Assembly: GCA_030704615.1 (NCBI GenBank)
Contig: CM060731.1
Span: forward strand, 44,516,001 to 44,580,000
Source of the DNA: Takakia lepidozioides
Taxonomy: Eukaryota; Plantae; Bryophyta
Direction of reading: 5' to 3'
Length of the DNA: 64,000 bases
The notes under the pieces were generated by a model, which saw only the letters and a program-made list of their open reading frames with translations, made no database searches and had not been told where the DNA came from. This document shows, one piece after another, positions 9,701 through 61,510 of this stretch; within the stretch, counting starts at the first letter, position 1, and each line of letters starts with the position of its first letter. Made by a program: the position numbers and the translations under genes.

Positions 9701-9911
9701 TCACAGTGAGAAGCTAGCCATTGCTTTTGGGCTTATCAGCACTCCACCTGGGACCCCAATCCGTGTCATCAAGAACCTTCGTGTCTGTGGTGACTGCCAC
9801 ACAGCCACCAAGTTCATCACAAAGATTGTTGATCGAACAGTTGTTCTACGGGACACCCACCGCTTTCACCACTTTCCACACGGGGTTTGTTCCTGCGGCG
9901 ATTACTGGTAA
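6716..9911 (+). pseudogene. PLS-class PPR protein with E and DYW deaminase domains (organellar C-to-U editing factor), frameshifted by an internal deletion
   Basis: About 8 L-S-P triplets at 303-nt period (MYAKCGS..ARQVFD.M..RNVVSWNAMI.GY). After WSAMI (~9249) the sequence jumps to EDFIDKMPITPDTSVWGALLGAC in another frame. ORF 9270..9911 has the PG box, HSEKLA, KNLRVCGDCH and terminal CSCGDYW. Confidence 0.9.
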
Positions 9912-28234: not shown

Positions 28235-28429
28235 CATCAACCATTGTTATTTAAGGTCTTCTCATGGCAGCCTTTATGGCGCACACTTTGTGAGGATATT
28301 TTCTCGTCCTCGTAATTGTAAAAGTGAAACAAGCATTTGTAATTGCACAATGTTGGATGCTACAATTGTAGGCCTCATGGTAGTCTTGATTCTATTTAGG
28401 CAAGACTCCCTGCATTAATTCCACGGTCT

Positions 28430-30048: not shown

Positions 30049-33000
30049 ATGGCGGACAATGAAGAAATGGTGGACAACGCACACCCTACTCATCAAGCCA
30101 ATAATGAGACGGTGTGGATGATGGAGCGCTTACACGAATTGCAGAATGTTCTTGTCACGACCCAACAACAAAACAACGTATTGATGGAGGAGCTTAAACA
30201 AGTGAGACAATCGACCGCCTAGGGACTGGTTGTTGGTGGGTCGGATACGTTACTGCAAAAGATGACCAAGACGTGCAACGTCGAGCCGTATAAAGGAAGT
30301 TGCGTCATGGGAGTGCTAGAAGGATGAATTTATCGAATGGAGGTACATCTGTCATATTTTCCTACATCAAGCGATTTGGACCACGGAATGTTCATACGAT
30401 CTTTTCTACTCGACAATGCTTCAACATGGTTACAGACATGGGAGAGAAGACAGATTGCAAAATAAGAACCTTTACTATGGAGCACATTGAAAGCGGGACT
30501 GCTCCAACAATTCAAGGCAGTATATGCTGTTACAACTGTTCGAATGAAATTATGGAATTTGGAACAACGCAGGAGTGTGCAAAATTACATTGAAGATTTT
30601 TTGAATTTTCAGGTCCAAATCGAAGACATGAGTCATGCAGAAGCTTTAGATAACTTCAAAAGAGGATTGAAGAAAAAAATTCAAGGAGAGATAATTTTAC
30701 GCAACCCGGTTGATGTCCACGAAGCAATTTCATTGGCCCAAAAGATTGAAGGGACGCTACCAAGATACGACGAAGGTATACACGTTCCATTGAACCAATA
30801 CGGACCAACGCCTATGGAGCTTGGAAATCTTCAAAGACGGGATCTTCCAATACTCTCAAAGAAATAGGTCGGAAATCAGATATAGGGAAGATAACACACA
30901 ACGGCGAATGAAATTGAATGACAAAGATGTGACCTCATTAACATTCTCACAAACAGAAAGACAAACGGAAAGTAGAGAACGTTACAACTGTGGAAAATAC
31001 GGACATCTTGCGGCTAACTGCGGAAGTGGAAAGTACAATCGACAAACTTATCGAAGACCTCTTAACAGTTGAAGGAGAGGAAAAGATAACGAACATCACA
31101 ATAAGCAGGAAAACAAAGACAACCAGTAAGTAGACCTCGCTGTCTTACTAGTTCTACAAAGAAGAGGAAATGCGAGGGGCCCTACAAGGAGAAGAGACGC
31201 AGTTAATTGTGGCAGATGGAACCTTGGAAGGTATTCATGTGAGAGTGTTGATAGACCCGGGGGCAACAAAAAAATTCTTATCTAGAAAGGCTGCCTTGAA
31301 ACTAGGACTCCCATTAGAAAAGGATGAAAGAGATGAAGTAGAAATGTCAAATGGACATACAGAGGCCATTGAGACACTACCTAAAAACATAGAGTTGTCG
31401 ATTGGTAAATATAGAGAAACCTTAGAATGACGAGTGGTCAGACTGGCTCGATATGACGTAATATTATACATGCCTTGGATGGAATCTCACAACCCTGATG
31501 TTGATTGGCGTCGAAAGATAGTTGAAACCCAGAATTGAAAAATATGGAGAGATCGAGTGAGGACACCATATCAAAACCTACCATCATTTGTTATAGGTAC
31601 TACAGCTATATGTAAGAAAGACGTATTATTTGTAGGTTTAATAAGAGACGTGAAAAATCCAAAAACAGACATGAGTGAGGTCCATTTAGAATTACAGAAT
31701 GTATTGAAAGAGTTCAAAGATGTTTTTCCAGATGACCTACCAGCACGGCTTCCGCCAAAAAGAAGAGTAGATCATAAGATTGAGGTTGTTCCAAGTAGTA
31801 TTCCTTCTTGTAAAGTCACTTATCGATTAGCACCAAACGAGTTGGTAGAATGTAAGGCTCAAGTCGATGACTTACTATCTAAAGGCTTTATAAGACCAAG
31901 TGTATCCCCGTATGGAGCGCCGTTGTTGTTTGTGAAGAAAAAAGATGGAGTAATGCGCATGTGCATTTATTATCGAGCACTCAACCAACAGACAGTGAAG
32001 AACAAGTACCCGTTACCACGCATAGACGATCTATTTGACCAACTGCGAGGAGCAAAATACTTTACGAAACTTGATTTGAGGAGTGGATACAACCAAATTC
32101 GAGTCGCTGATAAAGATGTATATAAGACCGTTTTCCTCACTAGGTATGGATATTTTGAATACATGGTTATGCCATTTGGTCTCACCAATGCCCCAGCCAC
32201 ATTCATGGGCCTCATGAATGATATCTTCCGCTCATTCTTAGATAAATTTGTGATAGTCTTTTTAGATGATATTTTGATCTATAGTAACAGCCTTGTCGAG
32301 CATAGAAACCACCTCAAACAAGTATTACAAGTTCTCCGTGAGAATCAGCTATATGCCAAAGCATCTAAATCTGAGTTTGGAAAACAAGAAGTAGATTATC
32401 TTGGGCATCGCGTGAGTAGGAAGGGAATTGAGATAATGAGTGAAAATATTGAAGCTATTCATTAGTGGATAGCCTCTGAAGACATTACCCAATTAAGGAG
32501 TTTTCTTGGTCTTACCGGATTCTACAGACGATTTGTACGGGCATTCTCAAAGAATGCCCAACCATTGACAAATCTTTTGGGCAAAGGATGGAAGTGGGGT
32601 ACAGAAGAAGAGTTAGCATTTCAGGTCTTGAAAGATGCGTTGCTTCATGCCCCGATCTTTAAATGGTATGATCCGACAAGACTAATCAAGCTCTCGGTAG
32701 ATGCGTCAAACTCAGCAGTGGGTAGGGTGTTACAACAGAATAGGAAGACGGATGGCACCCAGTGGCATATTTTTCTCGCAAATTGTTACCTACGGAACAA
32801 AATTACTATACAACCGAACGAGAAGAATTGGCTATTATTTTGGCTACAAAACATTGGAAGCACTATCTTGGAGACAAAGAGTTCATAGTGGAGACAAACT
32901 CTAAATCGTTGGTGTACTTGGAGACAAAGAAAGATCTATCAAAGAGACAGATTCGTTGGGCGGAGTGGCGACAATAATTTAACATGAAGATCGTCTATAT

Positions 33001-34667
33001 GGAGGAAAAACGGCAATTGGTGGATGCAATGACAAGGATGCCGCGCATGAACACATTGACCCCTGATGAACCTGCATTGAAAACAAAAGTCTTGTTTGAA
33101 ACTCATGATACGGCGATAGCAGGACATGTTGGAGTTGAAAAAACATTCGAACAACTAAAACGAACATTTTATTGCCCGCGGATGCGAGACGAGGTGGAGG
33201 CGTACGTTCGAAGTTGCATGAAATGTCAACAAAACAAGTCAACAAACCGCAAGCCAGCAGGTCCTTTACAACCACTATCAGTACCAAACAGACTTTAGGA
33301 ACATATGAGCATGGATTTAGTTTGTGAGTTACCTCAAACCTCATCGGGATACGACACTATAGTGGTCTTTGTAGACAAATTGAGTAAGATGATACACATC
33401 CGTCCCACTAGAAAATCCGTCACTGCACTTGAACTAGCTTGTTTTGGAAAAGCTTATTTGGTCTTTTTAAAACCAAATTAGCTATATCAACAGCCTATCA
33501 TCCGAAGTCAGATGGACAGACATAGCGAGCGAATCGGACAATTGAAGATATGTTGTGGTGACGTTAGAAGAACAAGAAGAGTGAGATTAGTAAATACCAT
33601 TGGTAGAATTTTCATATAATAACTAAACGCGTCAACGAAAGAAACTCATTTCTTTTTAATGTATGGTGAACACCCAAATATGCCAACAACTCTTACAAAG
33701 TTCAAGTTACCAAATGATAAGTTATCCAAGGTAGCCGTGACTAACGCATTTGTGCAACAAATTCGACGGGGAGTACGTCAAGCTAAAGAAAAGCTGATGG
33801 TTGCCCAAAATCGCCAAAAGCAGTATGCAAATGTACGTCGACGGGATGATGAGTTTGCAGTTGGGGATCAAGTGTGGTTGTCTACAACCGATTTACACAT
33901 CATTGGATCGCGAAAACTAGGGGCATGGTTCATTGGTCCTTTTTTTATCATTAAACGTATTGGAGCAGTAGCATACAAGCTGCAGTTACCACCACATATG
34001 AAGATCCACCCGGTGTTTCACGTTTTTCTACTATGTCGTTACGAACCTCGACCATTAATATTTAAAGATAATCAAGAACCGCAACTTTTACTAGAGTTGA
34101 TAGACGGAAATGAAGAGTGGGAGGTCGACCGTGTTCTGAAAAAACGCACATACAAACGAGTGCGACATGAGGTGTTGGAGTATTTGGTTTTATGGAAATG
34201 ATTTCCATTATATGAAGCTACCTGGGAACCTGTGCAAAATCTCGCAAATGCTCAATTGGCAATCCAAGCATTTGAAAATTCGAACAACGAGGACGTTGCT
34301 TCAAAGAGGGGATGATTGTAACATGGTATAATCTAGATGGAGGAGGTAAGTTCCTTAGAAGTTTCCAAAATAACTAGGAAGGTTCCTAGGAAGTTTGACT
34401 TGAGGCTCTCAAATCAAACCTATAAGATATTTATATTATGGAGAGTAGGTCAAATGTTTGATAAAGTCATATTGTGGAAAATATGTCAAACCTAGGAAGG
34501 TAGACTTTAGGGAAGTTTTGACTTGAGGCTCTCAAGTCAAACCTTTAAAATAATCATATTGTGAAGGGTATATAAACATGCAATGAAAGCCTAGAAAGCA
34601 TCGAGTTGTTTTGGGAAAAAATTGAAAAATACTTTTATTCTAGTTTGTGTTGATCCTGGGTGTTACA
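30049..34667 (+). mobile_element. Ty3/gypsy chromovirus, decayed, 5' LTR missing; 3' LTR 34317-34667
   Basis: gag (GPTPMELG, YNCGKYGHLAANC), PR (VLIDPGA), RT ([20 protein letters not shown]), RH (VDAS), INT (HDTAIAGH, SMDLV) and chromodomain (EWEVDRVL..YLVLWK..ATWEP). PPT aaagaggggatga; LTR TGTAACA...TGTTACA. Confidence 0.93.
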
Positions 34668-37665
34668 CGTAACATTTCCAATGTACGAAATACTCAAGAC
34701 GTTTATACTTGATGCGAGAGTCTAGGACTTCGTCGACTTCATACTCGATTTCCTAATTGGCGTCGATTGGTGGAGGTGGTACGGAGACTCTCCCTGGAAT
34801 ATTCGATAGATGATACAACTCCAATAATGAAATATGAAAGACTGGATGGATGCGCATACTTCGTGGGAGTTCAAGCCGAAAACTAACCTGATTTATTTGT
34901 CGAATAATTTTGAATGGTCCCAGGCGTTGATAATCCAACTCCTTTGATGGTCACGAGGTTTATAAGTCATATCGAAGAAGCCACACACAATCTCTCACCT
35001 TGAACTGGGGTTGGAGTTGACGATATTGATCTGCATACTCCTTGTATTGTTTTTGAGCTTCCGCGAGACGGAATGCAAGCTCCTTGTGAATCGTAGCAAT
35101 ATGAGTAGCAAAGTTTTCTTCAACAGGGCTTCCAACAGTTTTCATGTGAAAAGGATTTGCTCGAGGATGATGACCATAATTGGAAAAAAAAATAAAATGA
35201 AGTTTGCTTGGTCGAAAAATATATAGTGTTGTTGTAGGCAAACTCAGCTAATGACAGAAGGTCCGTCCAATTATCTTGGTGATAATTTATCGTACAACGA
35301 AGATATTGCTCCAAAATCTGGTTTACGCGTTCGGTTTGACCATCAGTCTGTGGATGATTAGTTGTAAAGAGGTTGATCTTCGTATCCAATATGTGAAATA
35401 ATCTCATCCAGAAATTTGATATGAACTGTGGTCCTCGATCAGATACGATGTCCTTCGGGAGTCCATGAATGCGGTAGATATTATTGAGGAAGAGTCTTGC
35501 AGTTTCCTCGCCTGTAACCGTCTTATTACATGGAATGAAATGTGTCATCTTCGTAAAACGATCCACAATAACAAGGATTGAGTCGGTGGTCTTCGAAATT
35601 GGAAGGTTCGTATTAAAATCCATAGACAAGGACGACCATGGACCCTTGGGAATGGGTAATGGTTAAAGAAGGCCGTAAGGTCGATGTCGTGGTCATTTCG
35701 CCCTAGCACATGTGTCACAAGATTTTACAAATTCTTTCACGAGTTTCCACACCTGCAGCCACTAATAGTCCTTGGATATCAATTACAGTGTTTTGTTGAA
35801 GTCAAAATGTCTTGCAGCCAAAAGATCATCGATTTAGTTGATTTTGTAGTGTCGTGGCAAATTGGTCGCTCTTCAGTGCTTCCTGAATCTCATTTATGAT
35901 CTCTATATCGTCATAGGTGGACATGGATAGCATATTCAATTGGAGATTTGTTGGTTTCAAGATAATGGAGTTCTGTTGGTCAAAAGCTGTGTCCCCTTCT
36001 TTTGGCGCAAGATACGATCGTCGAGAAAGAGCATTTGGTTTTCCTTGAAGATGTCCGGGACGGTAGATAATAACAAAATCAAACCTTGCTAATGACATAC
36101 TCCATCTCGCTTAACGTCGATTCAAAACACGAGCACTCATAAAATACTCGAGGTTTTTGTGATCGGTATAGACAGTGAGCTGATGTTTAGTTCCCTCTAA
36201 TAGATGACGTCACTCCTCAAAAACATCGATAATCGCTAAAAGTTCTTTATCATGGATTTCATAATTGATCTCCGCAGCGGAAAATTTGCGAGAACGAAAA
36301 CCAACAGGGTGAAGTCGGCCATCTGTACCGTATTGAGAGAATATCGCGCCAAGTGCAAAGTTCGATGCATCTGCTTCCAAAAGAATGGTTTAGATGGGTC
36401 TGCATGTACCAGTATTGGAGCCGTCGTAAATGTCTGCTTCAGTCTTTCAAATCATTGGTCAGCCTTCTCGTCCCATACAAATTTGTCCTTCCCTATAAGT
36501 CGTGTCAATGGTACAACAATTTTGGAGTAGTCCTTGATGAAGATGCAAATCTTAGAAAACATTGTACATCTCGGACCGAAGTTGGTTTAATCCACTCAAT
36601 GATGGTTTGTATTTTCTTCTGATCCATAAAGACTCATTTGTCGAAAATAATGTAGCCCAAAATTCGACTTCAGATTGGTGGAAAAGACATTTTTCCAACT
36701 TGACATATAGTTTTTTTTTCCTCAATTTATCAAGGACAAATCATACATGGCGACCATGTTCTTTTTCATTCTGTGAAAATATCAAAATGTTGTCTAAATA
36801 GATGACTACAAAGTCATCTAAAAATTCTCGAAAGATATCATTCATCATGTGTTGAAAAATTGTTGGAACATTTGTAAGACCGAAAGGCATAACACTGCAT
36901 TCAAAATGTCCGTACCTTGTGTGAAAAGCAGTCTTTCATTCGTCTCCTTCTTTTATTCGTACAAGGTTGTAAGCTCCTCTCAAGTCGTCTTTGTGAAAAA
37001 AATTGCTCGTCCAAGTTGTTCGAGGAGTCCGAAATCAGCGGTAGTGGGTAACGATTTTTTATAGTGACTTTGTTGAACCCACGATAGTCCACACACATGC
37101 GTGACGATCCGTCCTTCTTCTTCACAAATAAGATACGTGCCAGCTCCGTCTGAGATAAATTGTAGATTGGGCCGAATGGTGGTTGAGCTCTTTCTTGCAA
37201 CTCAATTGCACAATCATAAGGTCGATATTCTGACAACATGTCTGCATTTTTCTTCTCGAAGACATCCTTGAAATCTTGATATTGAATGGGTAATGTCGAA
37301 GTACCTTGGTCTATTGTGGTCTTGATCGGAGTCGCATAAAGTACAAATGTCGCATCTTTCTTCGTAGCTCTCATGAAGGCTCTAGCTCCAAAAAACAGGG
37401 GTTGAATACCTTTGGTGCTTTTGCATTTTTGTCTTGCCAAATTTTTCGTGATCACCAGTCGATGTCAGGATTATGAAGTACAAACCAGGGAGGTCCAAGG
37501 ATCACAGGATTCGTTGGAGACTGGATGACATTAAAAACAATCTGTGATGCTTGATTTTTAAGCTTCACTTCAAGGGGTCGAGTTTCATGGTCAATATTTT
37601 CTGATGCTAACGGTCGTCCATCGATGACTTCAACAGGGGCCGGGAATTTCTTTATTTGAGTCATT
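34668..37665 (-). mobile_element. second Ty3/gypsy chromovirus pol fragment, truncated in its chromodomain by the + strand element
   Basis: PR end ([17 protein letters not shown]), RT ([15 protein letters not shown]), RH, INT (SMDFNTNLP, HPQTDGQTERVNQ), [10 protein letters not shown] and EYEVDEVLDSR..YFVHWK. Confidence 0.92.
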
Positions 37666-39319: not shown

Positions 39320-39680
39320 TTTACCTCGGTTGTCCCACCATTGACTGGGGTCAGAAAAGTATTCATTCCACAGCTTCTCCTCGTCTCAGATGTTACCTGT
39401 TTTTGGATACTTCCTTGTTGTCACATTGGCAGTACCATGTCAAAGTCGCTCCAAACTATCAAAGGCTCACTCAACCAGCTAACTTGCAAAATTCAACATG
39501 AAAATTTAGGGCCGATTCTGATAAGAGGGAAAAACAGGGTGAAATGTGTTGAAGAAGGTGCTTTCATTACCAGTGCCTGAGTTTATCATTGTGCCGCTGC
39601 TGCTGCGGCTTCTAGTTGACCAGTCACCATCTACCCATGCAGGTTTCTTGTAGCTATTGATCCATCTGGTACATTTCCAG
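39320..39680 (-). pseudogene. fragment resembling OSB-family (organellar ssDNA-binding) PDF motifs
   Basis: WINSYKKPAWVD (end of a PDF motif) and, downstream, EEKLWNEYFSDPSQWWDNRGK. Confidence 0.55.
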
Positions 39681-40272
39681 CTTTGGTGATGCAACCATGC
39701 ACCTCCGATGCCCTTTTCCAGGGCTGCCAGGCTTGCACACGCACTGCAAACGCACACAAACATGATGTGGTCGAACTTCACCCCTTCCCCCATCATTTGC
39801 TTTCAGGTCTCCAAAGCCCCATACAGCGCCCCTGCTCTGCACACCCTGCAAACATCACATTCCACAACACCACATCTCATTCAGCCATAGTGTTGAACAC
39901 TCCCTTGGCATCCTCAATGCTACCATATTTGGCATACATGGCCACCAGAGCAGTGTTCAGGATGACATCTGGAACAATTGCAGATTTGATCATGTCACCA
40001 GGGATCTCTTTGCCCTTTTCCAGGGCTGCCAGACACACTGCAAACACACACAAACCTTATGTCGGCGGGCTTCACCCCTTCCCCCATCATTTGCTCATAG
40101 GTTGGAGCCTCCATCCCGCACCCTTACTGTGCATACCCCGCAAGCATCGCACTCCACGACACCACATCTTGTTCAGCCATAGTGTTGAACACTCCCTTGG
40201 CATCCTCGATGCACCCACATTTGGCATACATGTCCACCAGGGCAGGGGCAGTGTTCAGAATGACATCTGGTA
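39681..40272 (-). pseudogene. PLS PPR fragments (about two triplets), frameshifted
   Basis: VDMYAKCGCIEDAKGVFNTMAEQDVVSWSAML and AMYAKYGSIEDAKGVFNTM, same style as the 6716 gene. Confidence 0.85.
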
Positions 40273-40294
40273 ATCTGACAAACATTCTCCTTTT

Positions 40295-40984: not shown

Positions 40985-43900
40985 CCACTGTAGGTTTATG
41001 GCCCGTCTATTATTCATAGGGTGTCACTCCATTGTGCACTCGAGAACCTGAACGGTTGAGTACGTAGGTTGCAGTTTGGACTACCTCCCCGCAATATTGC
41101 AAGATCAATCACTGGGCGTGTAGCATGCTACGAATAGATTCAACGAGGGTTCTATTCTCTCGCTCTGCTGATCCATTCTGCCCCGGGGAATATGGGGCCG
41201 TGGTCTCATGGTGATTCCCAGCATCATCGAAGTATTTGGTGAACTTGGTGCTCAAATATTCGCCTCCCATGTCACTACGGAGCTTGTTAATTTTCACTAC
41301 ACCATTTGGGGGGGGGGGTTAGTGACGCTCTAGTGACGCCCCTGGCGTCACTAATGGTGATTTTTCGGCCCCGCGGAAATCGTAAATCTGTGACGCCTCA
41401 GCATCGCAATGGGGCCGTCGCAGAATGTAAGACTTAATGTGACGTCAGGGGGGTCGCAGATCCAACCCCCCTGAAAATTCCCAGTGACTGCGACGCTCCG
41501 GGCGTCACAAAATGGCCATACAGGGAATAAATGAAATAAAATCGCTTTTAAAATGCAACGCCATGGGGATTGTTGTTTGGGGCGTCCCATTTGAGGTTTT
41601 TTTGAATTTTGAATTTTGAATTTTGAAAAATGACGGGATCCACATGGTAAAAAAAAGGCGAGATTGCGCATGGCTCAAAAAATGGCGGGACACACATTAG
41701 CCACGTAGTGTGAAACCTAACCCTTCAACATGTTTTTGCAAGTAGCCGACACATATTGAGTTCTTAACTCATTCAACATATTGTTAGACAAATTTGAACT
41801 TAAGACCTTTAGATTATACACATAGTAAGACACTTCACACTAACCAACATATCGTTTGCCAAACTTACACACAAACTCATGATTTAATTCTACATAATAT
41901 AGTTCATGCGAGCGTTGCTCGTCACGACCTTAAAGCGATACTCCTCGCGTCGCTCAAATATAAGCGACGCCAGAGGCGTCACTTTTCCTGCATCCTCTAC
42001 TCTAAAAACCAAAAAATGATCAAGTCATTTGTAGTGATGCCTACAAATGACTTATCAACAAGAAAAACTCAAATGCGACGCCCCGGACGTCGCTAAAAAT
42101 GACTTAGCAAAAACAAAACTCAAATGCGACGCCTTGGACGTCGCATTCAAAATGCGATTTTTTTTTTTTTTTTTTTTTTTTTATAATAATTTTTAACTTT
42201 TTGGTGCTTGATGTGACGCTTTTGCGACGCCAATGCGTCGCATACAAAATGCGACGTTTTTTTTAAAAAAATAATAATAAATTAAAAAAAAAGATTCCCT
42301 TCTCGGGTGCTTGATACAACGTTTTTGCGACGGCTAGGGCGTCGTATTAAAAATACAATTTTTATTTTTATTTTTAATTTATTTGTTGCGACGCCTTCGC
42401 AGATGGGCTGTGACGTTTTTTTTTTTTTTTTTTTTTTTCGTCTGTTGCGACGCCTCAGAGACTTGACCAAAATCCACATAAAAGTGGATTTTGGTAGCTA
42501 GTGCGTCGCAAGCCCGTCGCAAGATGGGGACGCTGCGGGGGCGTCGTAGGGGAGAGGCGCCACGGGGGTAGGCGTCGCAAACCCCCCCTGTGGTGTTTGT
42601 TCCCAGTCTCTCTCAAAACTGCACCTGCTTCAAGCTGCTTGAAGGAATCGAAGACATTTGATTTCTTGCGGATGCAATACACATAATGGTACCCACTGAA
42701 ATCGTCCTTCAAAAGAACAAAATACCGGGCCCCTCCAAATGAGTTGACACTCATGGGCCCACAAATATCAGTGTGAAATAATTCACTAGCTTTTTGCGCA
42801 CGGAATGCCAGTGAGTGGACTGGGAACGGCTGCTTGTGGTTCTTCCCAAAGACACAACCTTTGCATAGGCTAGGCTCATAGTTGGCTGCAAGTTGCAGAC
42901 CTGTAACCATATTGTTTTTTACCATCTGGAGCATCATGTTGGTGTTGACACGGCCGAAACACTCATGCACACACTCAAGCTTTTGGCAACAGGCATTTTT
43001 CCATTGGGAGGTGGATTTGGATTGGTCAGGGCGACATTGGCCTTGCTTGTGGGCTTCACCACCCTCAGCTGTAGGACCCATACAATTTGTCAGACCGAAT
43101 GCCAGTCAACACAACTTTGCCTCGTCCTTCTTGCAGGCTAGTGAGAAAACATTCCCCTCGCCTATAGCTGCTTGACCTACTAAAAAGTAAAGGTCATTCT
43201 TGAGCTTTGGTACGTAGAGGACGCGTGACATCGTTCTCTTTTCCCAGTTACTATCAACCAGACACTCGATCACAATGTTGTCGGCACCACAAACCCAAAG
43301 CTTTGTGTTATCGGCAATCATAACTGGCCATTTGCATGGAGGAATCTCCTGAAGAGTATCAACCTACTCCAACTTATCCGTCATATGCTCAATGGCACCA
43401 CCATCTGCATACCAAGTGATGTCACTATTGTTGCTAGAATTGTAGGTGATCGTAACAAAGGCAACACTGTCAAATTCTTCGGAGGCGATGATGTTTACTT
43501 CGCTCTTAGATTTCTCATCTTGTTTCTTCTTTTCGCACTCCTTTTCCCATTGACCTTTTGCGCGACAATAGTTGCATCTGGTTCGCTTCTTAAGCTCAGC
43601 GATTCGCTGGGCTTGCTTAATTTTCTCCTTAGCTGTGGCATCCTTTTGCATGCTACTATTGCTTGGCTAAAGAAAAATGTTTTATCATGACCTCCTTCCT
43701 CAGATACGTCATGTATGCCGTTGTGACCTTCCTCCTTCAGCAATCGGAGGGTGAGGTTTTCAATGGTCTGCTGGTCGGCGAGGACGCTGTCCCATGCAGA
43801 GGCCAGATGTCTGTAACTTTGTGGCAAAGTTCCTATAATCTTGGTCATGACAGCTTGGTCTGAAATGGTCTCTCCAAGATCATTGAGCTGGTTCGCCATG

Positions 43901-44435
43901 ACCTCAACAATGGTGATGTGGTTGGCAATGTTGTCATCAGATTTCATGCGAAAATCAAAGAACTTTTGATGGAGCAGCTGTAGGTTTTCGGTGGCGTTCT
44001 GCTAATGCACGGTGCAGAGGCGTCGCCACATTTGTGGGGAGGTCCTGCTAGTTATCAACTGCCGCAAAAACTTAGTATCTACAGAAGAACAAATGATGGA
44101 TTGGCAAATACTATCTTTATCAATCCACTCATCCTCATTCTATGCATCCTCTCTAATGGCAGTCCCGACAACTATATTATATAGCTTCTTGGCACGAAGC
44201 ATGACACTCATATGAAATTTCCACATGCTAAATTCTCTCCGTTGAGCTTGTTTACTTTGATCAGGTCCCGAGCTGGATCTTTCTAACTCCCATCTCTCCC
44301 TTAAAGATCAGATAGGATAAAAATGACCACTACCCAGAAACTATGACTCAACGGCTACCAATGGAAGTCAAAGAAAAAAAAGGTGTTGATACAAAATCTA
44401 TCTATGGAAGCTGCAAAGGCCGTGGCCCCATAACC
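40985..44435 (-). mobile_element. Ty1/copia retrotransposon (gag-PR-INT), 3'-truncated, decayed
   Basis: PBS-like GGTTATGGGGCCA at 44423-44435; gag CNYCRAKGQWEKEC; PR WYADGGAIEHM; GAG-pre-integrase (CKGCVFGK); INT FHTDICGP, LRSDMGGEY and QNGSAERENRTL. RT is absent. Confidence 0.92.
41295..42595. mobile_element. non-autonomous CACTA element inserted in the copia integrase
   Basis: Termini CACTACA... and ...TGTGGTG, 3-bp TSD TTT, GCGACG/CGTCGC subterminal repeats. Removing it restores ETGNK-INKLRSD. Confidence 0.9.
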
Positions 44436-50932: not shown

Positions 50933-53124
50933 TGTGCCGGCGGATGGGTCCTGCAAATTGATTGCCTTTGACCTGCATGTGCCGGTTGCAGGGCTATCAC
51001 AACCTACTACAGGCAGTTTGATAGGTGTTGACACTCACAGCTGGGTTATTACCAGGTGGACCACCTCTACCACGTCACACTAAAATCCAACATTATCACC
51101 AGCCGATAAGCTCCACGTGGAAATGCTAGAGGAGACCCAGCAAACTCCAGAATTTGGCTTGCCCCACATGGAAGGAGGCTCTAATAATAAGGTCATGACC
51201 AGTGTTGGACCGGTATATAGGTCTTGGGCAGGTATCAACTAGGGTAAGGGTAATGGTATGAAGGATCATACCAGGCAGTACATACAAGGGCAAAACCCTG
51301 GTGGGGTAGGAGACATGGTGTCAAGTTATTTTACCACTAGTGTGAAACTAGCTAGGAAATAGCTAGCTTTTACATATTGACATTTGGAATTGGCCCAAGT
51401 GTCAACCCAGGGGTCAAGGCAGATTCAGGCCCTGGAGTGGTTATCTTCACGGCAAGCGCGGGAGGCTCATCTTTCTCGAGTTGAGCCTCACCGCGCCTAG
51501 CTATGGCGCCGTAGTGTGGATTCCCCATGGCGTGGGGTGCACTTGGCTTGACTTGTATTTGAGTGATGAGGTTATATATGCATGAGTTTATGCTTCAGCT
51601 TTGTGAGCTCGCATGAGCTTGTGCTTGTATTCTTCTTCGTTATCACTCGAGAAAGATGAGCTCGAGTCTGTGAGTGCCAGGTTCGAGTTGTTTTGTAGCA
51701 CTTGTGTTTTCATGAGAAGCAGTTCAGCCTAGAGTGCAGGGATCCGTGCATGAGCCTATCCAAAGTGGATAGAGTGCAAAGGCGAACAGGTTGCAGGTTT
51801 GCAATGGATAGAGAGGCGGGTAGCCTATGTTGAAGAGCAGCGTTGTATAGCTCAACGCTATGGCAACCAAGTTTGGGCTTCTAGTGTGAAGCGGGGGAGA
51901 TGTTGGTCTCGAGTGGGTGAACTGGTGGTCGTCTTCTTCAGCTGCAGGCCAAGTTAAGGAGCTGCAGCAATGTGGAGCTGCGAGGGTGTTAGATGTAAGT
52001 CACAGTTATCGGGAGCTCCAACTTCAAGCTCATAAGGAGGTATGAGTGAAGAGAGATGGCTGATTTCTCTTGTATGCAAGCCAATGCATTTGTGGCTATG
52101 TTGAGTTGGGGGTTTCAATCTGAAACTCCAGCGGTATGAGGGCTCTTGCCATGGCAAGAGCGGGGCTGGAACAGGAGCTAAGAGGTGCGGCAAGGCCAGG
52201 GAATGTGCACCTAGGGTTTCAGAGCTTGGAAGAAAAATTCTTGCACCACAAGAGGAGTGTCTTGTGGCTGGAAATGTAAGCCTTAGGGTTTCAGGAGCTT
52301 GGCAAGGGATGTGGAGTGCTTAGTCTTGTCTTAGAGAGCATCAAGGAGCCAAGGAGCCAAGATAGGGGGCTGATATCTCTTGTGTGAAGAGGTTGCATGT
52401 GTGGAGCATGTATTCAGCTCATTGAAGCTTCCATCTTCAGCTTGGAGGGCAAGCAAGAAAGAGGGAAGGGCTGACTTCCCTTATGTGAGGGCAATGCATG
52501 TGTGGAGCATGCTATCAGCCTGGTGAAGGCTTGCACTTTCAGGTTTGTGGGTGCAAGAAATGAAGCAAAGGAGCTGATTCTCTTATGGTGAGAGTGGGGC
52601 ATGTGTGGAGCATGCCTTCAGCCCATTGAGGCTCTTGTTTTCAAGCTTTAGAGAGCTAGAACGGAAGGTCTAGGGCTGGTTTCCACTTGGAGTGAAAGAA
52701 AAGCACTTGTAGGGCCTATGTGAGTTGGGGTTTCAACTTCAAGCTTGAAGGGAGCGCAACTCTTGAAGCAGCAGGTGTAGGGGGCTGGAATAGGCTCTAA
52801 GACAGATGCTATGGCCAAGGAGAGTGCTTGAATGAGTGCTCACAAGGGCTGGGAACCAGCAGGGCTTGGTTGTTTGCCATTGAGTTTAGTGGCGTGTTTG
52901 GGGAGGCTAAGTGAGAAAGAAGGCTTGGTTTGTGGCAACCACCTCATGGCTTAGGGCTACTATGGTGGTGTGTGGGAGCCGAAAGAGCAAGAATACCTTG
53001 TTGATTTCCTCACAGCCGCCATAGCTCGGTGGAAAGAAGCCTAGAGTCCAAGAGACACAAACCCTAGCTTGGCGTGGCTAAACCCCTTGGAGAAATGGCT
53101 AAACTGCCAGAACGGCCATGGATG

Positions 53125-53600
53125 GAGCTGTGACGGGCTGTCCCTGTGGCCTTGGGGGCTGTGACGGGCTGTGAGGGGCTGTGCTAGTGGCCTTTGGGGC
53201 TGTGCCGGGCTGCGCGGTGGCCTTCAGGGTTGTGATGGGCTGTGCCTAGTGGCCTGTGGGGCTGTGACAGGCTGTGACATGCTGTGGCGAGCTGTGACGG
53301 GCTGTGCCAGTGGCCTGTGGGGCTGTGACGGGCTGTGAGGGGCTGTGGCTTTTGGGGCTGTGACCCTGTGACCTTTATAGGGCTGTGACAGGCTGTGCCT
53401 GTGGCCTTTGGGGTTGTGATGGGCTGTGACAGGCTGTGACATGTGGCCTTTGGGGCTGTGACAGGCTGCGGCCTGTGGGGCTGTGACCCTGTGACCTGTG
53501 TAGGGCTGTGACAGGCTGTGGCCTGTGAGCTGTGTGGGCCTGTGCTGGTCTGTGGTGGCTCGTGTTGGCCTGTGGACGGCTTGTGCTGACTTGTGGAGGC
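53125..53600 (+). repeat. GGGCTGTGAC-type minisatellite in the element's 5' non-coding region
   Basis: Many imperfect gggctgtgac/ggcctgtg units. Confidence 0.9.
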
Positions 53601-54238
53601 ACTGGGACTGGTATGTGGTCTTGAAGGCCGAATTTTGAAGCTCGTGGAGGGCGGTTTGAGGAGTATCTTCATGATATTCCCATGGTCATGCAAGTGAGGG
53701 AAGAGTGGAGAGAAAGAGTGTTGGGATGAGGGCATGCTGGGGTTAGGCATTGCTTTAGCTTCTCTTCCTCATAGTTTTCACCCTCTCATTAGGCCAAGAC
53801 CTTTCCGTAGGTGGAGGCAAGAGTCATTCCGGGTTTGGGCTGGGGTGTCCTTGCAGGAGCAACACCGTGGAGTTGTTTTTGGTGTGGGGGAGTTGTCGTT
53901 CTGATTTCTTGTGTTTGGATCCCCTCCATACCTGCATGCTTGACTGTGCGCCATGCTAGTTTTGTGTGGGCGCTTGTTTTTATAGGTGATTGGTCCGGAT
54001 TTGATCACCGGCCAGTCCTAGAGCATGCTGTCGATGGTGAGGCTGGGGTGATGACCAGCCAGACCATCATTGTTTCTCCAATGATGAGGTTGGAGGTGAT
54101 GACCAGCCAACCATAGGAGTGCTTGCGGTGGATGCAGGTACAAGTGTAGGCTATGTTAGGAACTTAATATTCCAAACCATAAGCCGCAACAGGTTCTCTA
54201 CCCGGTTACCTTGTGGAGAGGGGGTTAGGGACATGTTC

Positions 54239-56800
54239 ATGACCGGTTGAGTATCAACACAGAGGTGCCACTAGTTGCAAGGGACAGTGCCGGTTCGAGC
54301 ACTAGCAATACTAGTGGGTACACGAGACGAGGTGTGCGGTTTAGGCCACCTTCACCTCCTGTGTCTTCTACGGAAGGTCCTGATTCGGATTGTGAATCAG
54401 GAGGACTCATACCGGCAGTGCAAGTTGTTTCTTTGCCATTGTTGTGGGACACAATGGAAGAGATGTATGGAGCTACCAAGGGGCCACGAAGGTACTCTGG
54501 GGTGGTGGGCACCATCGAGTTGGATGATTTTATCCAAGAGTTTGATAGTTGGTGTGATTTGCAGCAAATGCGCAATCCACAACTATTTACACATTTCATG
54601 GCATGGAAGGGGCTGTTTCAGCACCTTGAGGGGCCGCCTATGGATGATTACCATGAGTTCAGGCGGGGGCATGAGGTTGAGATTGAGGAGTGGAGGATGT
54701 ACTGGTCACCCGACTATGTCTCCATCACTAGGGGTACTAGAGCCACGAGGGCAGTGGCTACACCTGCCGCTGCACTGGCAGCTTCAGCAAGTAGCAGTGG
54801 GACTAGTGGGACTGGTGGTACAGTAGCTACGACGTCCACCCAAGCCACTACCGCACCAGCACTAGTACCCGTGCCTGCCTTCAATCCTGTTGTGGAGTTC
54901 TTCGAAGAGTTGAGAGGGAACTACCAAGGGGTGAGGACAGAGAAGTTGCGGAGCTTGCAAGAGTTCCAACGGAAGCCGACCGAGAGCTTGAGGGAGGCTT
55001 TCATTCGCATGAGGCGCTTGATAAATGTAACCCAAGGGGTTACGGAAGCTTAGGCAATCCAATTCTAGTGTGGGATATTGGACAAGGAGCTGAGGAGAAG
55101 GGTGCGGGATGCAACTCTCCTACAAGCGGCCCAACCCACCTTAGCAAATGTGTTTTTGCTGGCAGAGCGGATAGAGCTCAACATGGTGGAGGAACAAGTG
55201 GTCATGTGGGATTTGCTAAGGAGACGCCACGGGGTAGTGGTGCTCCTAGCCAACCACTACCTCAACGTGCTCAAGGCAACAAGGGGGCTTAGGTGAAGCT
55301 CAGGGAATGACAGAGAGGACCTCAGATGCAGGGGTCTCTCCCTTCATTTGCTGGCCAACAACGGGCGGATGTGGTGTGCTGGACATGTGGAGGACCCCAT
55401 GTCAAGAAGGATTGCCCAGAGGGAGGCAAAGGGCCAGCTCATGCACAGCCTGCACAGTTGCAGTGTGGGCATTGTGGCAAGCACGGGCATGGAGAGGCCC
55501 AGTGTTATGGTTTGTATCCTGAGTTGCGCCCAGGCCAGTTCCAAGGGAACAATGGTGGCCGGGGGCAAGGTGGAGCAGCCCAGAGAGGACGAGGTGGCCA
55601 GCCACGAGGTGCAGGCCAAGGCAAGCTCAACATGGCCAAGGACGCGGAGGTCAAGGTGTTGACCAAGGCATGGCCAACCGGCTTCAGCAGCTAGAGCAGA
55701 GGCTCGCTGCCATGACTACAGCTCAGGTGGTACCGGCTCTAAGGCCGGATGGTCCACCTCCTCCTCCTGAGGGAGGAGATATGGGAGGCATGGGATTCAT
55801 GTGTGGAGCAGCACTACCACTAGTGCAGGTGGAGTCTGCTGCAGCCATGACTCGAGGAGCAGCACGAGTTCCTGAGCCACGAGGTGCAGAGGTGGAGTTG
55901 GATCCACAGCGTGGGGAGGCAAGCCGTCGGCTAGGCTTCCTCAGTCATTCACATTGGCGGAGACAGTGTTGACGCCATCCATGGCACCTAGTTCTCGCCC
56001 GACTGTTACCGAGGCGGAGGTTACTATGCCATTGGGGAGAGCTACACGGGTAGCACCACTACCTAGTGTTGCCAAGGCTACGGCAGCTAGTGTGCTGCTA
56101 GGAGTGGCCACATCTGTGTGCCAGGCTCCATTGTTCTCGGCTACCATGATTGCGATGCCGGGGGTAAGACCAGCTGAGGTGTTCAGGCTGGCAGCTACAC
56201 TCTGTGAAAGTGGGGAGGTTACTTCATCTACTGCGGAGATAGTGGGAGGTGTAGTGCCGGAGGGATCCTCGGATTTGAGGGTCAAGACTGCCACGGCGGC
56301 GCCATGGCAAGCTACAGCTGCCAGGTTGATGGAGCTGCCAGCTAGGCCAGCCATTGAGCGCGCCATGGTGACACATGGAGTTGTCATGTTAGACAACCAG
56401 GATGGCATTTTCTGTTTGAGTGGACCGGCAGGCAAGAGGTACCAGCCACTGCGGGTCTTGTTGGACTCGGGAGCTCAGCCATTGATGCTAGGCAGAGCTG
56501 CTATTGCAGGCTTGGGCCTCACGGATGCGGATATGGAGCCTTGTCCTTTCCAGATACAAACGTCTCTGGGAGGATCGGAGCAGGCTCGGGGCATGACACG
56601 ACGTGAGTTGGCTATCAGACTACGGCCGGATCACCCTACAGATGGCTCAGTGATGCGAGCCAAGGCCATTGTGACAGACGTGGTCTCATACGATGTCTTG
56701 GTTGGTGGGGCAGTGTTGTACCCCATGGGCTTCACCCTGGATTTTTGGGAGGAGTCAGCTTCCTATAGGCATGCATGGCAGTCAGGGGAGGGCCGGCGTG
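54239..56800 (+). pseudogene. gag (two CCHC knuckles) and aspartic protease of the DNMT element
   Basis: Retrotransposon gag helix FQRKPTESLREAFIRMRRL; CWTCGGPHVKKDC; CGHCGKHGHGEAQC; VLLDSGA...YDVLVG. Contains stops and frameshifts. Confidence 0.88.
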
Positions 56801-57171
56801 TGCAGCTCCCTGTGACGTTCATAGGAGGAGTTGCGGTTGCCCAGCGAGGCAAGATGCCGACACTAGCAGCATTCACAGCGGCAGTGAGTTGGCCTAGAGA
56901 GTTGCTTGAGGGCAACGCTCATTCAAAGGATGTGCCACCTCCGGGAGAGCAGGATGACATGTATGGTATGGCGAAGTTGCCTACCATGGTTGCTAAGACT
57001 CCATTGTGGGGCACGAGCAAGGATTTGCAGCGGGATGCTGATCAACGGGTGCAACAAGCCTGGGTGGAGGCTTTTGTACCGTCAGGAGAGGATGAGAGTG
57101 CGGGGATTGCACCAGGACCACCTCAGTTGTCTCCATTGGACACCACACCTATTGTGTGGCAGTATCCGGAT

Positions 57172-58110
57172 GAAGGCATTTGTCTTCTGGACTTGTTTGG
57201 CGGGATCAGCACCGGATTGGCTGCTGTGTTACAGGTTCGGCGTTACCTGTATGTGGAGAGGGATGAGACTGCGTTTCACTTCGCCATGTTGCTCAGTTGG
57301 TGCAGCGGTACCCTGAGTTGTTGCCGGTGTCTGCAGTTTGTGGATATCAGCAGGCCTTGCCAGCAAACATTTCGTTGCTGGGGGCGCAGGATTTGGAGCG
57401 GGTAGGCTCCATTGATCTGGTAGTGGCAGGTTGGCCCTGCCAAGGGCATTCATCCGCCAGGCATGGCAATGGATTGCGAGACTCGAGGTCGGGTCTGTTT
57501 TGGGAGATGGTGCGGGTTTTGCGCATCTTGCAGCTTCATCAAGCTGTATCTCCAGCATACATCTTGGAGAATGTGCCACTGATGGGCGATTCTCGGGCCA
57601 GGGTGATGGCCAGTGTGCATCAAGTCCGATCGTGGCTTGGGTCAGCAGTGTTGCTAGATGCAGCTACAGTGGGGTCACGGGCTCATCGTCCACGGCTATG
57701 GTGGACTAACTTGATGCCACCCGCACTGCTCAAGCGTGCATTTGATGGGGTGCAGCGGCCAGCACATCTCACAGTGGATAGCATTCTGGACACAGGGAGG
57801 CAGTCTCAGCGTGTGAGACACGATGACCGTTCGCCTTTGGCAGTGGTCAACAAGGTGGGTCAACCACGAGCAACATTACCTACACTGCTCAGCTTCCCAG
57901 GATCGCATGCTTTCCGGGATAGTGGACATGGCCTCCTGTGGGATGCTCATTGCAGCAGTTAGTGGAGCCTAATGCTGACGAGCGTGAGCGGGCAATGGGT
58001 TTTATCACTGGTACCACGGCGGTGTCGTCTCTTTCTGAGGCATTACGTCGTCAAGTGTTGGGGCAAGCAATGGATCTCAATTGCTTGACCTGGATTATCA
58101 GCTTGGCTAT
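57172..58110 (+). pseudogene. C5 cytosine DNA methyltransferase domain, DNMT3-like, inside pol
   Basis: Motif I LDLFGGISTG; II YVERD; IV DLVVAGWPCQG; GLRDSRSGLF; VI ILENV; VIII AHRPRLWWTNL; IX EPNADERERAMGF; X RRQVLGQAMD. Frameshifts at ~57290 and ~57950. Confidence 0.93.
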
Positions 58111-59029
58111 GGCTGAGCAACGCAGAGTGCGGAGTACTTTCCCTCGATGGTCTCTCTGCCTATCGAGACGGTACAGGCAGTGAGTGGGGGCGAGCATGTT
58201 AGGACCACGGGGTGCATGCATCCATGGCACACGTGGGAGGTGCTCGAGGTTTAGAGGGAGTTGGCAGCCAAGGCGACTGTGATGGATGAGGTTGGGGATT
58301 CTTCTCGGGTTGAGGAGGTCCTCAAGGATGAGATGATGGGGCAGGATGAGGCCTTGTCATTGACTGAGCAGGCAGGGAGTACTGCTCAAGAGGTTGTGGC
58401 ATAGCAACCACGGGACGTGTCCTCTACCTCTAAGTCTGTTGGACTTAAGGTTGCAGTTACGAAAGGCAATTGGGAGCCTGACATTGGACCTATTGTCACT
58501 AGAGGAGAGAGACGACGTATACGGCGGTTCCTGAGGCTTACAGGAATTGCTTTGCCTCTCGTGCTACGGTAGATGAGCATGAGAGACATGTTCAGGTTGT
58601 GCATCGACCGGGTTTGGTCAATAGGGATGCGGATGGATTGAGTCGCAATCCATGCACGAGCCAGCAGGATGACACTGGAGCTCGGTGGGCATGGTGAGAC
58701 GGACAAGGAGATGGTGCCGGGATGGCATGCATCTGCCTTTTTTGTGTATCTTGGCATCGGGAGGTCAGGTTGGACCTACAACAGGGATGACTGTAGACGG
58801 ATTGTCTGAGGACCCTGAGGCTAGTGATGAGCCAGGTGGTGCCAAGATATACATAAGGATTCGGTTGTGTTGGACTACCTCCGCACTGGAGACACGGTAG
58901 TTAGTGTGACTGCCAAGGAGAGGGATCGGATCCTACAACGAGCCAAGAGGTTCAAGTGGGAGGGGATACACATGCTTCGAGTGTGGGAGGATGGTCGGTG
59001 AGATTGTGCCTCACCCCACACAGCGTGCC

Positions 59030-60288
59030 ACGGTTAGTGCGGCATGCCCATGAGGAGTTGGGGCATTTTTGGAGTGCGACGCACTCACAGTTTACTGCAG
59101 GGGCAGTATTGGTGGCGTGGTATGCATACAGAGGTGCAACAGTTCGTGGCTAGATGCATGGTGTGTGACAGGGTGCGTGCTTCATTCAACGCCCCTACAC
59201 CATAGTTGCATCCTTTACCAATCATGGGATTGGGCTACAGGTGGAGTCTTGACTTCGCAAGACCGTTGCCACCGACTATGCGCCACCACAGATATGTGTT
59301 GGTGATGGTGGAGCACTTCTCCAAGTGGATTGAGTTGGTTCCATTGCCTGACAAGGCTAGTGAGGGGGCTGCGTATGCATTCTTGGATCGTGTGCTTAAC
59401 CGATTTGGTGCTCCAGCTGAGGTACTCACGAACCAAGGGAGAGAGTTTCTTGGGGGAGTTTCAGGCTTTGTGTGATAAAGCCTTGATAGACCACCGCACC
59501 ACTTCTCGGGATCATCCCGAGGCTGATGGCTTGGCAGAGAGAGTTGTTCAGACGGTGAAGAGGGGTTTGCGCAAGTATGGCTTGCAGAGGGACACCTAGG
59601 AGATTGGGATCTTCAGGTTCTTTGGTTAGCCATGGGCTACAGGTTCAGCAAACAAGCATCACTTGCCTCCTTCTCACCATATTTCCTTCTCTTTGGCCGA
59701 GAGCCGGATTTGCCTGTAGCCATTCGTAGGGACACTGCTCAAGTCCTTAACCTTGACGATCCGGACGTGTGGGTACGTGCATGTGATCAGCATGCAGAGT
59801 TGTTCAAGAAAGTCATGCCCATGGCTTTTGAGAACCTTGCCATTGCACAGCACCGTGATACGTTGAGGTATGCCACTATACGTGGTGGAGGATATCGTCA
59901 TGGGGTTCGGAGGTTTAGCCCTGGTGACTATGTTTATTTGCGCAGACTGCTCCTACGACTCTGGATGTTACTGCAAGGCGTGTTATTCTGAGGGTTCAAG
60001 AGGTGTTGCCCTCAGGAGTCCTGATCTTGGAGGGTCGGGATGGCATGACTTGGAAAGACCATGTGCGTAATTGTGCGCCATGTCACCTTCCCAATGTCGA
60101 TGGCAGAGTTGACCCAAACTTGGCAGTGGTACCTGCAGTTTGAGGTGCATGCTCTGTGGGTCTGCCAAAGGGGCAGCCACCATGCTGGTGTGTGATCGAT
60201 GCTCAAGGGTTGACATATGGGATGCTTGACACCACCTCTTGAGAAGGTTCCTGACGGAGATTGGTTGTGTCAACACTGCTTGGGATAG
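59030..60288 (+). pseudogene. DDE integrase with C-terminal PHD finger
   Basis: HEELGHF..YWW..CMVC; WSLDFA; VLTNQGREF (second D is N); HPEADGLAER; SPYFLLFGR. PHD 60146-60288: CMLC..LVCDRC..HMGCLTPPL..VPDGDWLCQHC*. Confidence 0.9.
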
Positions 60289-61510
60289 TGGTAGTGGACA
60301 TGACTGGAGGCAGCTAACAAGACATGGGAGGCCAAGCTCATAGGAGTCAATACATGAGATCCCAAGCTCAAGTTCACAGGTTGCAAGACGACGACTAACG
60401 ATGGGGCAACTCTTGCACCCGGCCTCTTGATCTATTATGTTTGAGTGTAGTAGGGATAGTGGTGGAAGACTTAGTGAGGCTATGGTCACTATCACATCTT
60501 GTGGCTACCTGGACTTAGAGGGACCTAAGCACCAGCTAGGGGGGCGATTGTGTGGACTAGTGACTGCCATAGTGGGCAGCATAGTGGCAGCCTAGTGACT
60601 GATTAGTTGTAGCCTAGTGGTTGGACTAGTGGCTGGACTAGTGGCTGGACTAGTGATATACTAGTGTGTGGCGTGCACATGTGTTGTGTGATTTTGGACA
60701 GCGATGTAGTTGTGTAATGATATGTATGCGTACGACAACTGTCAAGTTATTTTACCACTAGTGTGAAACTAGCTAGGAAATAGCTAGCTTTTACATATTG
60801 ACATTTGGAATTGGCCCAAGTGTCAACCCAGGGGTCAAGGCAGATTCAGGCCCTGGAGTGGTTATCTTCACGGCAAGCGCGGGAGGCTCATCTTTCTCGA
60901 GTTGAGCCTCACCGCGCCTAGCTATGGCGCCGTAGTGTGGATTCCCCATGGCGTGGGGTGCACTTGGCTTGACTTGTATTTGAGTGATGAGGTTATATAT
61001 GCATGAGTTTATGCTTCAGCTTTGTGAGCTCGCATGAGCTGGTGCTTGTATTCTTCTTCATTATCATTGTGTGGACTAGTGACTGCCATAGTGGGCAGCA
61101 TAGTGGCAGCCTAGTGACTGACTAGTTGTAGCCTAGTGGTTGGACTAGTGGTGAACTAGTGATATACTAGTGTGTGGTGTGCACATGTGTTGTGTGGTTT
61201 TGGACAGCGATGTAGTTGTGTAGCGATATGTATGCGCACGACAATGGACTTCTAAAACCTTGGCGAGAAACATACCGGTGGGGTCTTCTTCCTCGCGCTA
61301 TCACTCCAATGCCATGCATGCGTAGGTTGAGGGACAGGATGCAGGGGTAGGGTCTAGGGTAGTATGAGGTTAGGGATACTAACTACATATAGCGTTTTCA
61401 AGAGGGCACTTCAATGAGGATAAGTTACAAGTTGCTAATATGTTTGAAGAGTAGTAGATGAAATGCAATTTGTTAGTTTATGCGCTTAAAGAGTGATAGA
61501 GAAGAGTTAA

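Follow-up and report, generated by a model that had tools for sequence, protein, structure and literature searches.

A dead Ty3/gypsy retrotransposon copy with a DNMT3-like cytosine methyltransferase, split direct repeats and a stop codon in a readthrough context in Takakia lepidozioides

The element described here is a dead copy of a land-plant Ty3/gypsy retrotransposon. Its family, which is highly repeated, is of the KnitGypsy-Dnmt3 type. In this family the domains follow the order Gag-protease (PR)-DNMT-stop-RT-RNase H (RH)-integrase (IN)-PHD, the repeats are arranged as A...B-A-B with a 4-bp target duplication, and the DNMT3-like methyltransferase has been kept by selection. From these features we slightly favour an explanation, drawn from sequence, in which the enzyme is made together with Gag ahead of a stop codon that is likely leaky and probably methylates the new cDNA; integration of this cDNA is predicted to proceed by way of a two-LTR circle that is opened again. 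The features of the copy are given below in the coordinates of the window, that is, the whole 64,000-nucleotide stretch that was analysed.

51315-51318, no strand: left target-site duplication ATGG, the same four letters as at 61244-61247
51319-51645, plus strand: repeat A1 (327 nt), starting TGTCA and ending CA, the 3' part of the split LTR; 99.4% identity to A2
51465-51481, plus strand: predicted self-primer; all of its 17 nt are complementary to the primer-binding site (maximum in 47 control windows, 10 nt)
51645-51661, plus strand: predicted primer-binding site (PBS) directly behind A1; a different 17-mer pairs alike in L032 and L045
51662-54228, plus strand: long non-coding leader, which contains a tract of GC-rich tandem repeats at about 53124-53574; no long plus-strand ORF
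54454-55690, plus strand: gag, including zinc knuckles, interrupted by stops and frameshifts; 62% identity to residues 1-248 of Marchantia P0007; Retrotrans_gag E 0.013
about 56350-56770, plus strand: aspartic protease (LLDSGA), from a weak Pfam match (E 0.024) and comparison with relatives
57175-58117, plus strand: DNMT3-like C5 cytosine methyltransferase, motifs I-X linear, frameshifted; from motifs, PF00145 and relatives
58402-58410, plus strand: in-frame TAG, then CAA CCA, a type I readthrough context; ends the Gag-PR-DNMT ORF, the stop being kept in 39 of 40 related loci
58405-58690, plus strand: RT and RNase H remnants; two deletions, one near 58557 and one near 58591, took away about 1.25 kb
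58846-59937, plus strand: DDE integrase (H2C2 finger, rve core; rve E 8.5e-10), frameshifted
60140-60290, plus strand: PHD finger closing the second ORF, frameshifted; from tblastn with the PHD of P0046, and PF00628 in unbroken relatives
60538-60547, plus strand: polypurine tract (PPT) AGGGGGGCGA directly before B1; the same tract precedes B1 in related loci
60548-60737, plus strand: repeat B1, ending GACA, the 5' part of the LTR
60734-60743, no strand: B1/A2 junction GACA-AC-TGTC, a palindromic integrase-type end pair with a 2-bp spacer; GACA-NN-T(G/A)TCA also in 6 related loci
60740-61066, plus strand: repeat A2
61067-61243, plus strand: repeat B2, joined directly to A2 and ending GACA at the right end of the element
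61244-61247, no strand: right target-site duplication ATGG

The element thus spans 51319-61243 between its 4-bp duplications. The order PR-RT-RH-IN, the DDE integrase, the TG...CA ends, the target duplication, the PBS and the PPT are all those of a Ty3/gypsy element, but identical LTRs are not found at the two ends, which are A on one side and B-A-B on the other, the split direct repeats of DIRS/PAT elements. The original prediction of an LTR-type Ty3 retrotransposon is therefore right as to the Ty3-type domains and the DDE integrase and wrong as to the LTR pair: the element works like an LTR element, but its ends are permuted and it is not an ordinary one. Membership of DIRS was considered and rejected, since an rve integrase is present and no tyrosine recombinase family was found in the unbroken ORFs. 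The domain order was read from the remnants in the window together with the unbroken relatives L044 and L049 for PR-RT-RH-IN. The window copy itself is a pseudogene: gag contains stops, frameshifts occur both within the DNMT and behind it, and RT/RNase H is largely deleted, leaving just the beginning of RT, an island of 36 nt and the final part of RNase H; none of the proteins of the element can be made from it. The two RT gaps are filled, by 570 and about 675 extra letters, in the contig of another family member. The CpG observed/expected ratio, 0.51 in the element versus 0.58 in the window, is not unusual and says nothing about self-methylation.

The 17 nt lying directly behind A1 pair perfectly with positions 147-163 of A, an unrelated 17-mer pairs in the same manner in the related loci L032 and L045, and 9 of 14 related A1 copies match at least 13 of the 17 nt at the self-primer site. 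In 8 of the 14 A1 copies TATAAA is found 26 nt upstream of the self-primer, and at the expected site of the window A no canonical TATA was found, which counts against the favoured explanation. Given a PPT before B1 and a predicted primer site after A1, the functional LTR would be B.A, and the A2/B2 junction joins exactly the PBS-defined end to the PPT-defined end. It is likely that the RNA primes itself in the manner of Tf1 from the 17-nt stretch in A, so that standard LTR reverse transcription would yield B.A-internal-B.A.

The complete A...B-A-B plan is present in the window, L032, L055 and L062, and a 4-bp duplication with TGTCA...ACA ends in all five elements having both ends. Moreover, the B1/A2 joint reads GACA-NN-T(G/A)TCA in the seven cases shown out of seven, the outer ends standing face to face across a 2-bp spacer. 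Within L062, B1 and B2 share five element-specific variants, and over five elements no fixed difference between B1 and B2 was found; separate inheritance of B2 was rejected because the two never differ in a fixed way. The repeat plan and these shared variants identify A-int-B-A-B as a circular permutation of B.A-int-B.A. They suggest, as the simplest route to this arrangement, a two-LTR circle cut by the integrase at the internal palindrome: the cDNA ends would join, forming the A/B junction, and the integrase would nick each of the two strands of the internal GACA-NN-TGTC behind CA and insert the product as A-internal-B-A-B. We consider this step a little better than an even bet.

A possible but less probable origin of the same ends is the one proposed for PAT/DIRS-type elements: reverse transcription would include additional switches of template, giving a linear cDNA with ordinary processed ends and no cutting of a circle. 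Such switches would explain why A-internal-B-A-B is the sole form: the mirror form, A-B-A-internal-B, was found in none of 16 distinct 5' ends (a count from which L004, L005 and L037, cut or out of context, are left out), while random cutting of a two-LTR circle predicts both forms equally often, so that the circle model needs an unexplained bias. The arrangement also matches that of DIRS-type elements. Nevertheless, the PPT and the PBS are placed as a normal B.A LTR needs them and the A/B junction joins exactly the ends that they define, B1 and B2 are regenerated from one template, letters of the PBS are kept in the A/B junction of one locus, L041, and no tyrosine recombinase was found, all of which argues for the re-opened circle.

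Some loci depart from the complete plan. Single-B endings were observed in L014 (11605-11718), L023 (6944-7057) and L030 (14373-14486), and could be products of B1-B2 recombination or of one-LTR circles. L041 (12400-13320, the same insertion as L042) is rearranged, with an internal inversion, and yet has a 4-bp target duplication; its A/B junction retains 9 nt of the PBS and 6 other letters. In the window copy, with its decayed interior, A1 and A2 differ at 2 of 327 positions, and B1 and B2 at 7 of 177 plus a 13-nt indel (p 0.011); the larger divergence of the B repeats counts against the favoured explanation, and the pattern suggests conversion of A or a mixed template.

From the perspective of the enzyme, six of the methyltransferase motifs predicted from the letters occur between 57190 and 58075 in the linear DNMT3-like order: I, DLFGG (57190-57204); IV, GWPCQ, with PC at 57435-57440; VI, ENV (57567-57575); VIII, RAHRPR (about 57678-57695); IX, ERERAMGF (57980-58003); and X, LGQAMD (58058-58075). 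They are not permuted as in DRM, are spread over three frames and, as also predicted, lie without introns between the protease and the RT remnant, which starts at 58405. As to the damage, motif I is followed by a gap of 4 codons, and the frame changes near 57270, 57950 and 58140. The main frame, 57267-57959, matches PF00145 in the proposed HMM check with E 1.1e-11 and 45 bits (cut-off 22). The DNMT3-like identity is further borne out by sequence and by modelled fold. Among solved structures, DNMT3A ranks first both for the window frame (E 1.7e-5, versus 0.01 for M.HhaI and 0.03-0.3 for DRM) and for the unbroken relative P0001 (8e-11, versus 4e-7 to 2e-4 for DRM), through which the domain is seen to be colinear with DNMT3A. 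The predicted structure of an unbroken related DNMT domain reached pLDDT 70 and pTM 0.77, and a Foldseek search with the modelled unbroken relative returned DNMT3A first (E 1.4e-17), DNMT3A/B filling the top matches listed. An Atlas search with the DNMT returned generic DNA-methylase clusters.

Among seven natural, unjoined DNMT stretches, dN/dS is 0.09-0.26 in 13 of the 21 pairs, the other 8 being saturated. Saturation affects most dS values; the three pairs least touched by it gave 0.14, 0.12 and 0.10, and for RT the value is 0.04 in the one shared pair. GWPCQG and ENV are invariant across the seven-stretch alignment. By these comparisons, of the kind proposed at the outset, the DNMT is kept under purifying selection, and its catalytic motifs are intact in unbroken relatives.

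An enzyme as abundant as the coat protein, made by way of the likely leaky stop discussed below, would likely methylate the new DNA copies of the element. More specifically, the packaged DNMT may methylate the cDNA before or at insertion, so that the new copy would arrive pre-marked, a step whose chances we regard as evenly balanced. It is rather unlikely, though worth weighing, that in the same element the DNMT acts mainly on host chromatin or serves as a non-catalytic DNA-binding or decoy module, in which case the bulk of it would mark older copies or compete with host DNMT3 instead of acting on fresh cDNA. Expression at the level of Gag would presumably give far more enzyme than one cDNA needs, and the Klebsormidium domain was inactive in yeast, a result that its authors call inconclusive (PMC5890265). 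Furthermore, the PC of motif IV drifts to EC, or is lost, in many distant members, EC being found in 70 of 179 DNMT domains. By contrast, the land-plant group keeps GWPCQG, ENV and the arginines of motif VIII, and the domain sits in a protease-processed polyprotein, which in Ty3 elements generally is packaged together with the RNA; both points favour methylation of the cDNA.

The level at which the enzyme is made depends on the stop codon between the DNMT and RT. In the window, the frame of the TAG CAA CCA continues into RT. The original placing of the DNMT inside pol holds insofar as the domain lies between protease and RT, but the in-frame stop at 58402-58404 separates it from RT, and the DNMT ends the Gag-protease ORF. 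In the 40 related loci with both anchors, this border carries a stop in frame in 37 (31 distinct insertions) and out of frame in 2, and GAG in the remaining one; L040, L054 and L060 were left out of the in-frame count and checked separately. The stop and the letters after it read TAG CAACCA in the window and L001, TAG CAGTTA in L044 and L046, TAG CAATCA in L049, TAG TAGCCA in the decayed L050, and TAG or TAA, mostly with CAACCC, in the largest related family. The sequence UAG-CAR-YYA, which is the type I readthrough motif under the definition of PMC11166343, is thus present in the window and in three divergent groups, the residues around the stop differing among groups; as a background, CARYYA follows 36 of the 7,620 TAG in the loci. 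In four sequencing runs no variant at 5% or more was found at 58400-58411, while 58397-58399 and 58412 do vary.

The search for intact family members, also proposed at the outset, found unbroken relatives, for example L044, in which a 1,369-codon Gag-PR-DNMT ORF, one stop and a 1,047-codon RT-RH-IN-PHD ORF follow each other in frame. Full-length products of the first ORF measure 1,217-1,444 aa and end 65-158 residues past motif X; the Marchantia/Calypogeia proteins P0001 and P0007 end 92-94 residues after it. Because the in-frame stop before RT is conserved, Gag-PR-DNMT is one ORF and, RT lying in the same frame as the DNMT, a single polyprotein would result if the stop were read through. Very probably, ribosomes mostly stop at UAG-CAR-YYA, so that DNMT and protease would be made at the level of Gag and RT and integrase only through readthrough, with many DNMT molecules per integrase in the particle. 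No such break is found in K. nitens P0039 or in P0040/P0211, where DNMT and RT share a frame; the stop is consequently a feature of one branch, and Gag-level DNMT is not needed in all members.

It is improbable that the stop is a true terminator and that RT-RH-IN-PHD is translated from a message that is spliced or begins internally, or through re-initiation. In the largest related family the hexamer CAACCC is one letter off the motif and is followed by an ATG that could permit re-initiation, TAA occurs in 10 of the 31 distinct insertions listed there, and some Marchantia gene models, such as P0002, splice across the region. However, in the window, L001, L044, L046 and L049 the hexamer is not followed by an ATG and moreover varies only inside CAR-YYA; the two ORFs are in frame in unbroken loci; and TAA is found in decayed copies, one transition away from TAG. 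A leaky stop remains the preferred reading.

As regards the family, 104,644 contig records from one run of the host species map to the 10.6-kb stretch with the element, and these records and the gap-filling contig mentioned above indicate a highly repeated family that has members with RT. The copies of the host species were seen as short contigs, and the summed read depth, which is no copy number, is far higher inside the element than in the right flank. A search of longer proteins gave 48 matches among 3,205 candidates, of which, among those named, Marchantia polymorpha accounts for 15 cluster representatives (up to 73% identity), Calypogeia fissa for 2, and Sphagnum troendelagicum and Klebsormidium nitens (44% identity) for 1 each. 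A metagenome scan added 73 related loci, whose resemblance to the Sphagnum protein exceeds that to the liverwort proteins only modestly; those reaching the neighbouring domains have the order gag-PR-DNMT-RT-RH-IN-PHD. A profile search yielded 423 clusters at E 1e-30 or better, and domain mapping of the best 150 of them and of the earlier matches revealed two orders, PR-DNMT-RT and RT-RH-DNMT-IN-PHD, the latter with all five domains in 30 proteins. Names among 20 profile-search representatives include Closterium (PR-DNMT-RT), a Scenedesmus pol (RT-RH-DNMT-IN-PHD) and Calypogeia.

The DNMT tree (FastTree, 185 rows, weak root) was built from element-borne domains and two outgroups, excluding domains below 270 or above 420 aa with the exception of the 225-aa frame of the window. 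It groups the window with Marchantia and Calypogeia proteins (support 1.0), and the RT tree (56 rows) contains a matching land-plant-containing group (0.985). The same main groups are recovered in both trees, which include neither host DNMT3 genes nor DNMT-free relatives, and neither tree puts K. nitens, whose position is unstable, inside the land-plant group. The proteins of the RT-RH-DNMT-IN-PHD order (P0046, P0253 and others) make up a large second group, single in both trees (0.90 in the RT tree); its motif IV reads EC instead of PC in 42 of 83, and no paper on this arrangement was found in the literature search.

The contig also carries genes that speak for its host. An intronless PLS-E-DYW PPR gene (6677-9911) has only land plants among its named best matches: within the best 120, those named are from lycophytes, ferns, gymnosperms and one liverwort, with identities of up to 54% in the lycophyte Diphasiastrum, 35-47% in a conifer and 34-43% in ferns, few bryophytes being represented. 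In addition, an F-box gene belongs to streptophyte clusters; one further homology search with it gave no match. Together, the PPR and F-box genes point to a land plant, probably a non-flowering one, as host. A capture of a host DNMT3 by this copy only, or algal contamination, can practically be dismissed: although the tree covered no land-plant host DNMT3, the DNMT stands at the same place in related loci and in named liverwort, moss and charophyte proteins, the DNMT and RT trees share their main groups, and the contig carries land-plant genes. The family is accordingly neither single-copy nor confined to this genome, the same order recurring in liverworts, peat moss and charophytes. As far as tested, the sequence comparisons place the element as a probable land-plant branch of the described KnitGypsy-Dnmt3 type and not as a separate capture.

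Other features were noted in the window. The PPR gene shows a frame change between its repeat tract and its E/DYW part near 9250-9320, and an inverted, decayed partial PPR paralogue lies within 39620-40273 (about 39.7-40.2 kb). Divergent ORF clusters at 19500-28300 are probably a large DNA transposon; they include a SWIM finger (E 0.01) at about 28.0-28.1 kb and, on the minus strand at 22.1-22.8 kb, a WDGNYR motif without a Pfam match that presumably resembles ParB-like domains. Further decayed elements at 641-3086 (minus), 30466-34201 (plus), 35120-37464 (minus) and 42455-44001 (minus) comprise a LINE (RVT_1 E 4e-34), two Ty3 elements of the ordinary kind that carry no DNMT, and a remnant resembling Ty1/copia.

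The question why a silencing enzyme is kept by retrotransposons has stood since 2018, because the known hosts were difficult to study; annotated members in Marchantia polymorpha, a genetic model with methylation mutants, make it testable. For Marchantia met1 mutants, an up-regulation of TEs on a broad scale is reported (10.1101/363937). The stop codon gives a prediction of dose, much DNMT and little RT and integrase, and the anatomy of the repeats suggests how an element with a DDE integrase may acquire DIRS-like ends, by a route that can be tested. From a practical point of view, such copies are missed by finders of LTR pairs and may enter counts of host DNA methyltransferase genes by mistake. 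More tentatively, a Ty3 lineage reaching across green plants, from chlorophytes to liverworts and mosses, might bring DNMT3 into the particle at coat-protein level via a leaky stop, methylate its own cDNA there and integrate from a two-LTR circle cut at the palindrome inside the LTR. If so, circles, which are dead ends for most LTR elements, would be the normal substrate of this lineage, and methylation would possibly choose which palindrome is cut.

In the literature covered, neither a land-plant report of DNMT-bearing Gypsy elements nor one on their readthrough or their integration from circles was found; most subscription papers lay outside this coverage, as did figures and a 2026 preprint's supplements, which possibly contain land-plant members. 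In the three text supplements of PMC5890265, a term search found Physcomitrella and neither Marchantia nor Sphagnum. Later papers, in the parts that deal with these elements, name only a "streptophyte" Gypsy-DNMT3 (PMC12344493; 10.64898/2026.05.21.726589), and the relevant sections of four others treat only host enzymes (PMC6453930; 10.1101/363937; PMC10952607; PMC9516144).

The closest known system is KnitGypsy-Dnmt3 of Klebsormidium nitens, described as a Gypsy element with a DNMT3-like domain, DIRS-like repeats and Ka/Ks under 0.2 (de Mendoza et al., 2018; PMC5890265). Both elements have an intronless, non-permuted DNMT3-like domain between protease and RT, A...B-A-B repeats and purifying selection, and K. 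nitens P0039 is 44% identical to the window element over the DNMT, the integrase core reaching 62%. They differ in host, an alga in one case and a land plant in the other, and in the Pol ORF, which includes the DNMT in KnitGypsy-Dnmt3/P0039, whereas in the window a conserved stop in a readthrough context separates DNMT from RT. Self-priming, target duplications and a palindromic junction are features of the window that the passages on KnitGypsy-Dnmt3 do not mention (PMC5890265). According to the same paper, SymbioDIRS-Dnmt3 of Symbiodinium likewise combines a DNMT3-like domain with A...B-A-B repeats, and de novo CG methylation by its enzymes was shown in yeast; it integrates, however, by a tyrosine recombinase, while the window has a DDE integrase, 4-bp duplications and no recombinase.

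Tf1/sushi and the plant Tcn1 elements resemble the window element in a primer-binding site complementary to their own LTR and not to a tRNA, but they have ordinary paired LTRs and chromodomains, and the account of them, in the part that concerns these elements, includes neither a PHD finger nor a methyltransferase (Neumann et al., 2019; PMC6317226). Type I readthrough uses the same codon and hexamer (PMC11166343); in the window the site follows Gag-protease-DNMT and does not stand directly behind Gag or coat protein. Among the features of the element, its type, including the domain position and the A...B-A-B repeats, was already known from KnitGypsy-Dnmt3. The retroelement SIRE1 uses type I readthrough before an env-like gene. 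In the circle-junction transposition of the IS3 family and in the LTR-LTR junction cleavage of foamy viruses, a DDE enzyme acts on a circle in which two ends abut across a short spacer; the cut proposed for the window element would lie inside the LTR and not at the joint of the cDNA ends. What appears to be new, as read from the sequences compared, is the land-plant range, the stop in a readthrough context, the 17-nt self-priming site and the 4-bp duplications together with the palindromic junction.
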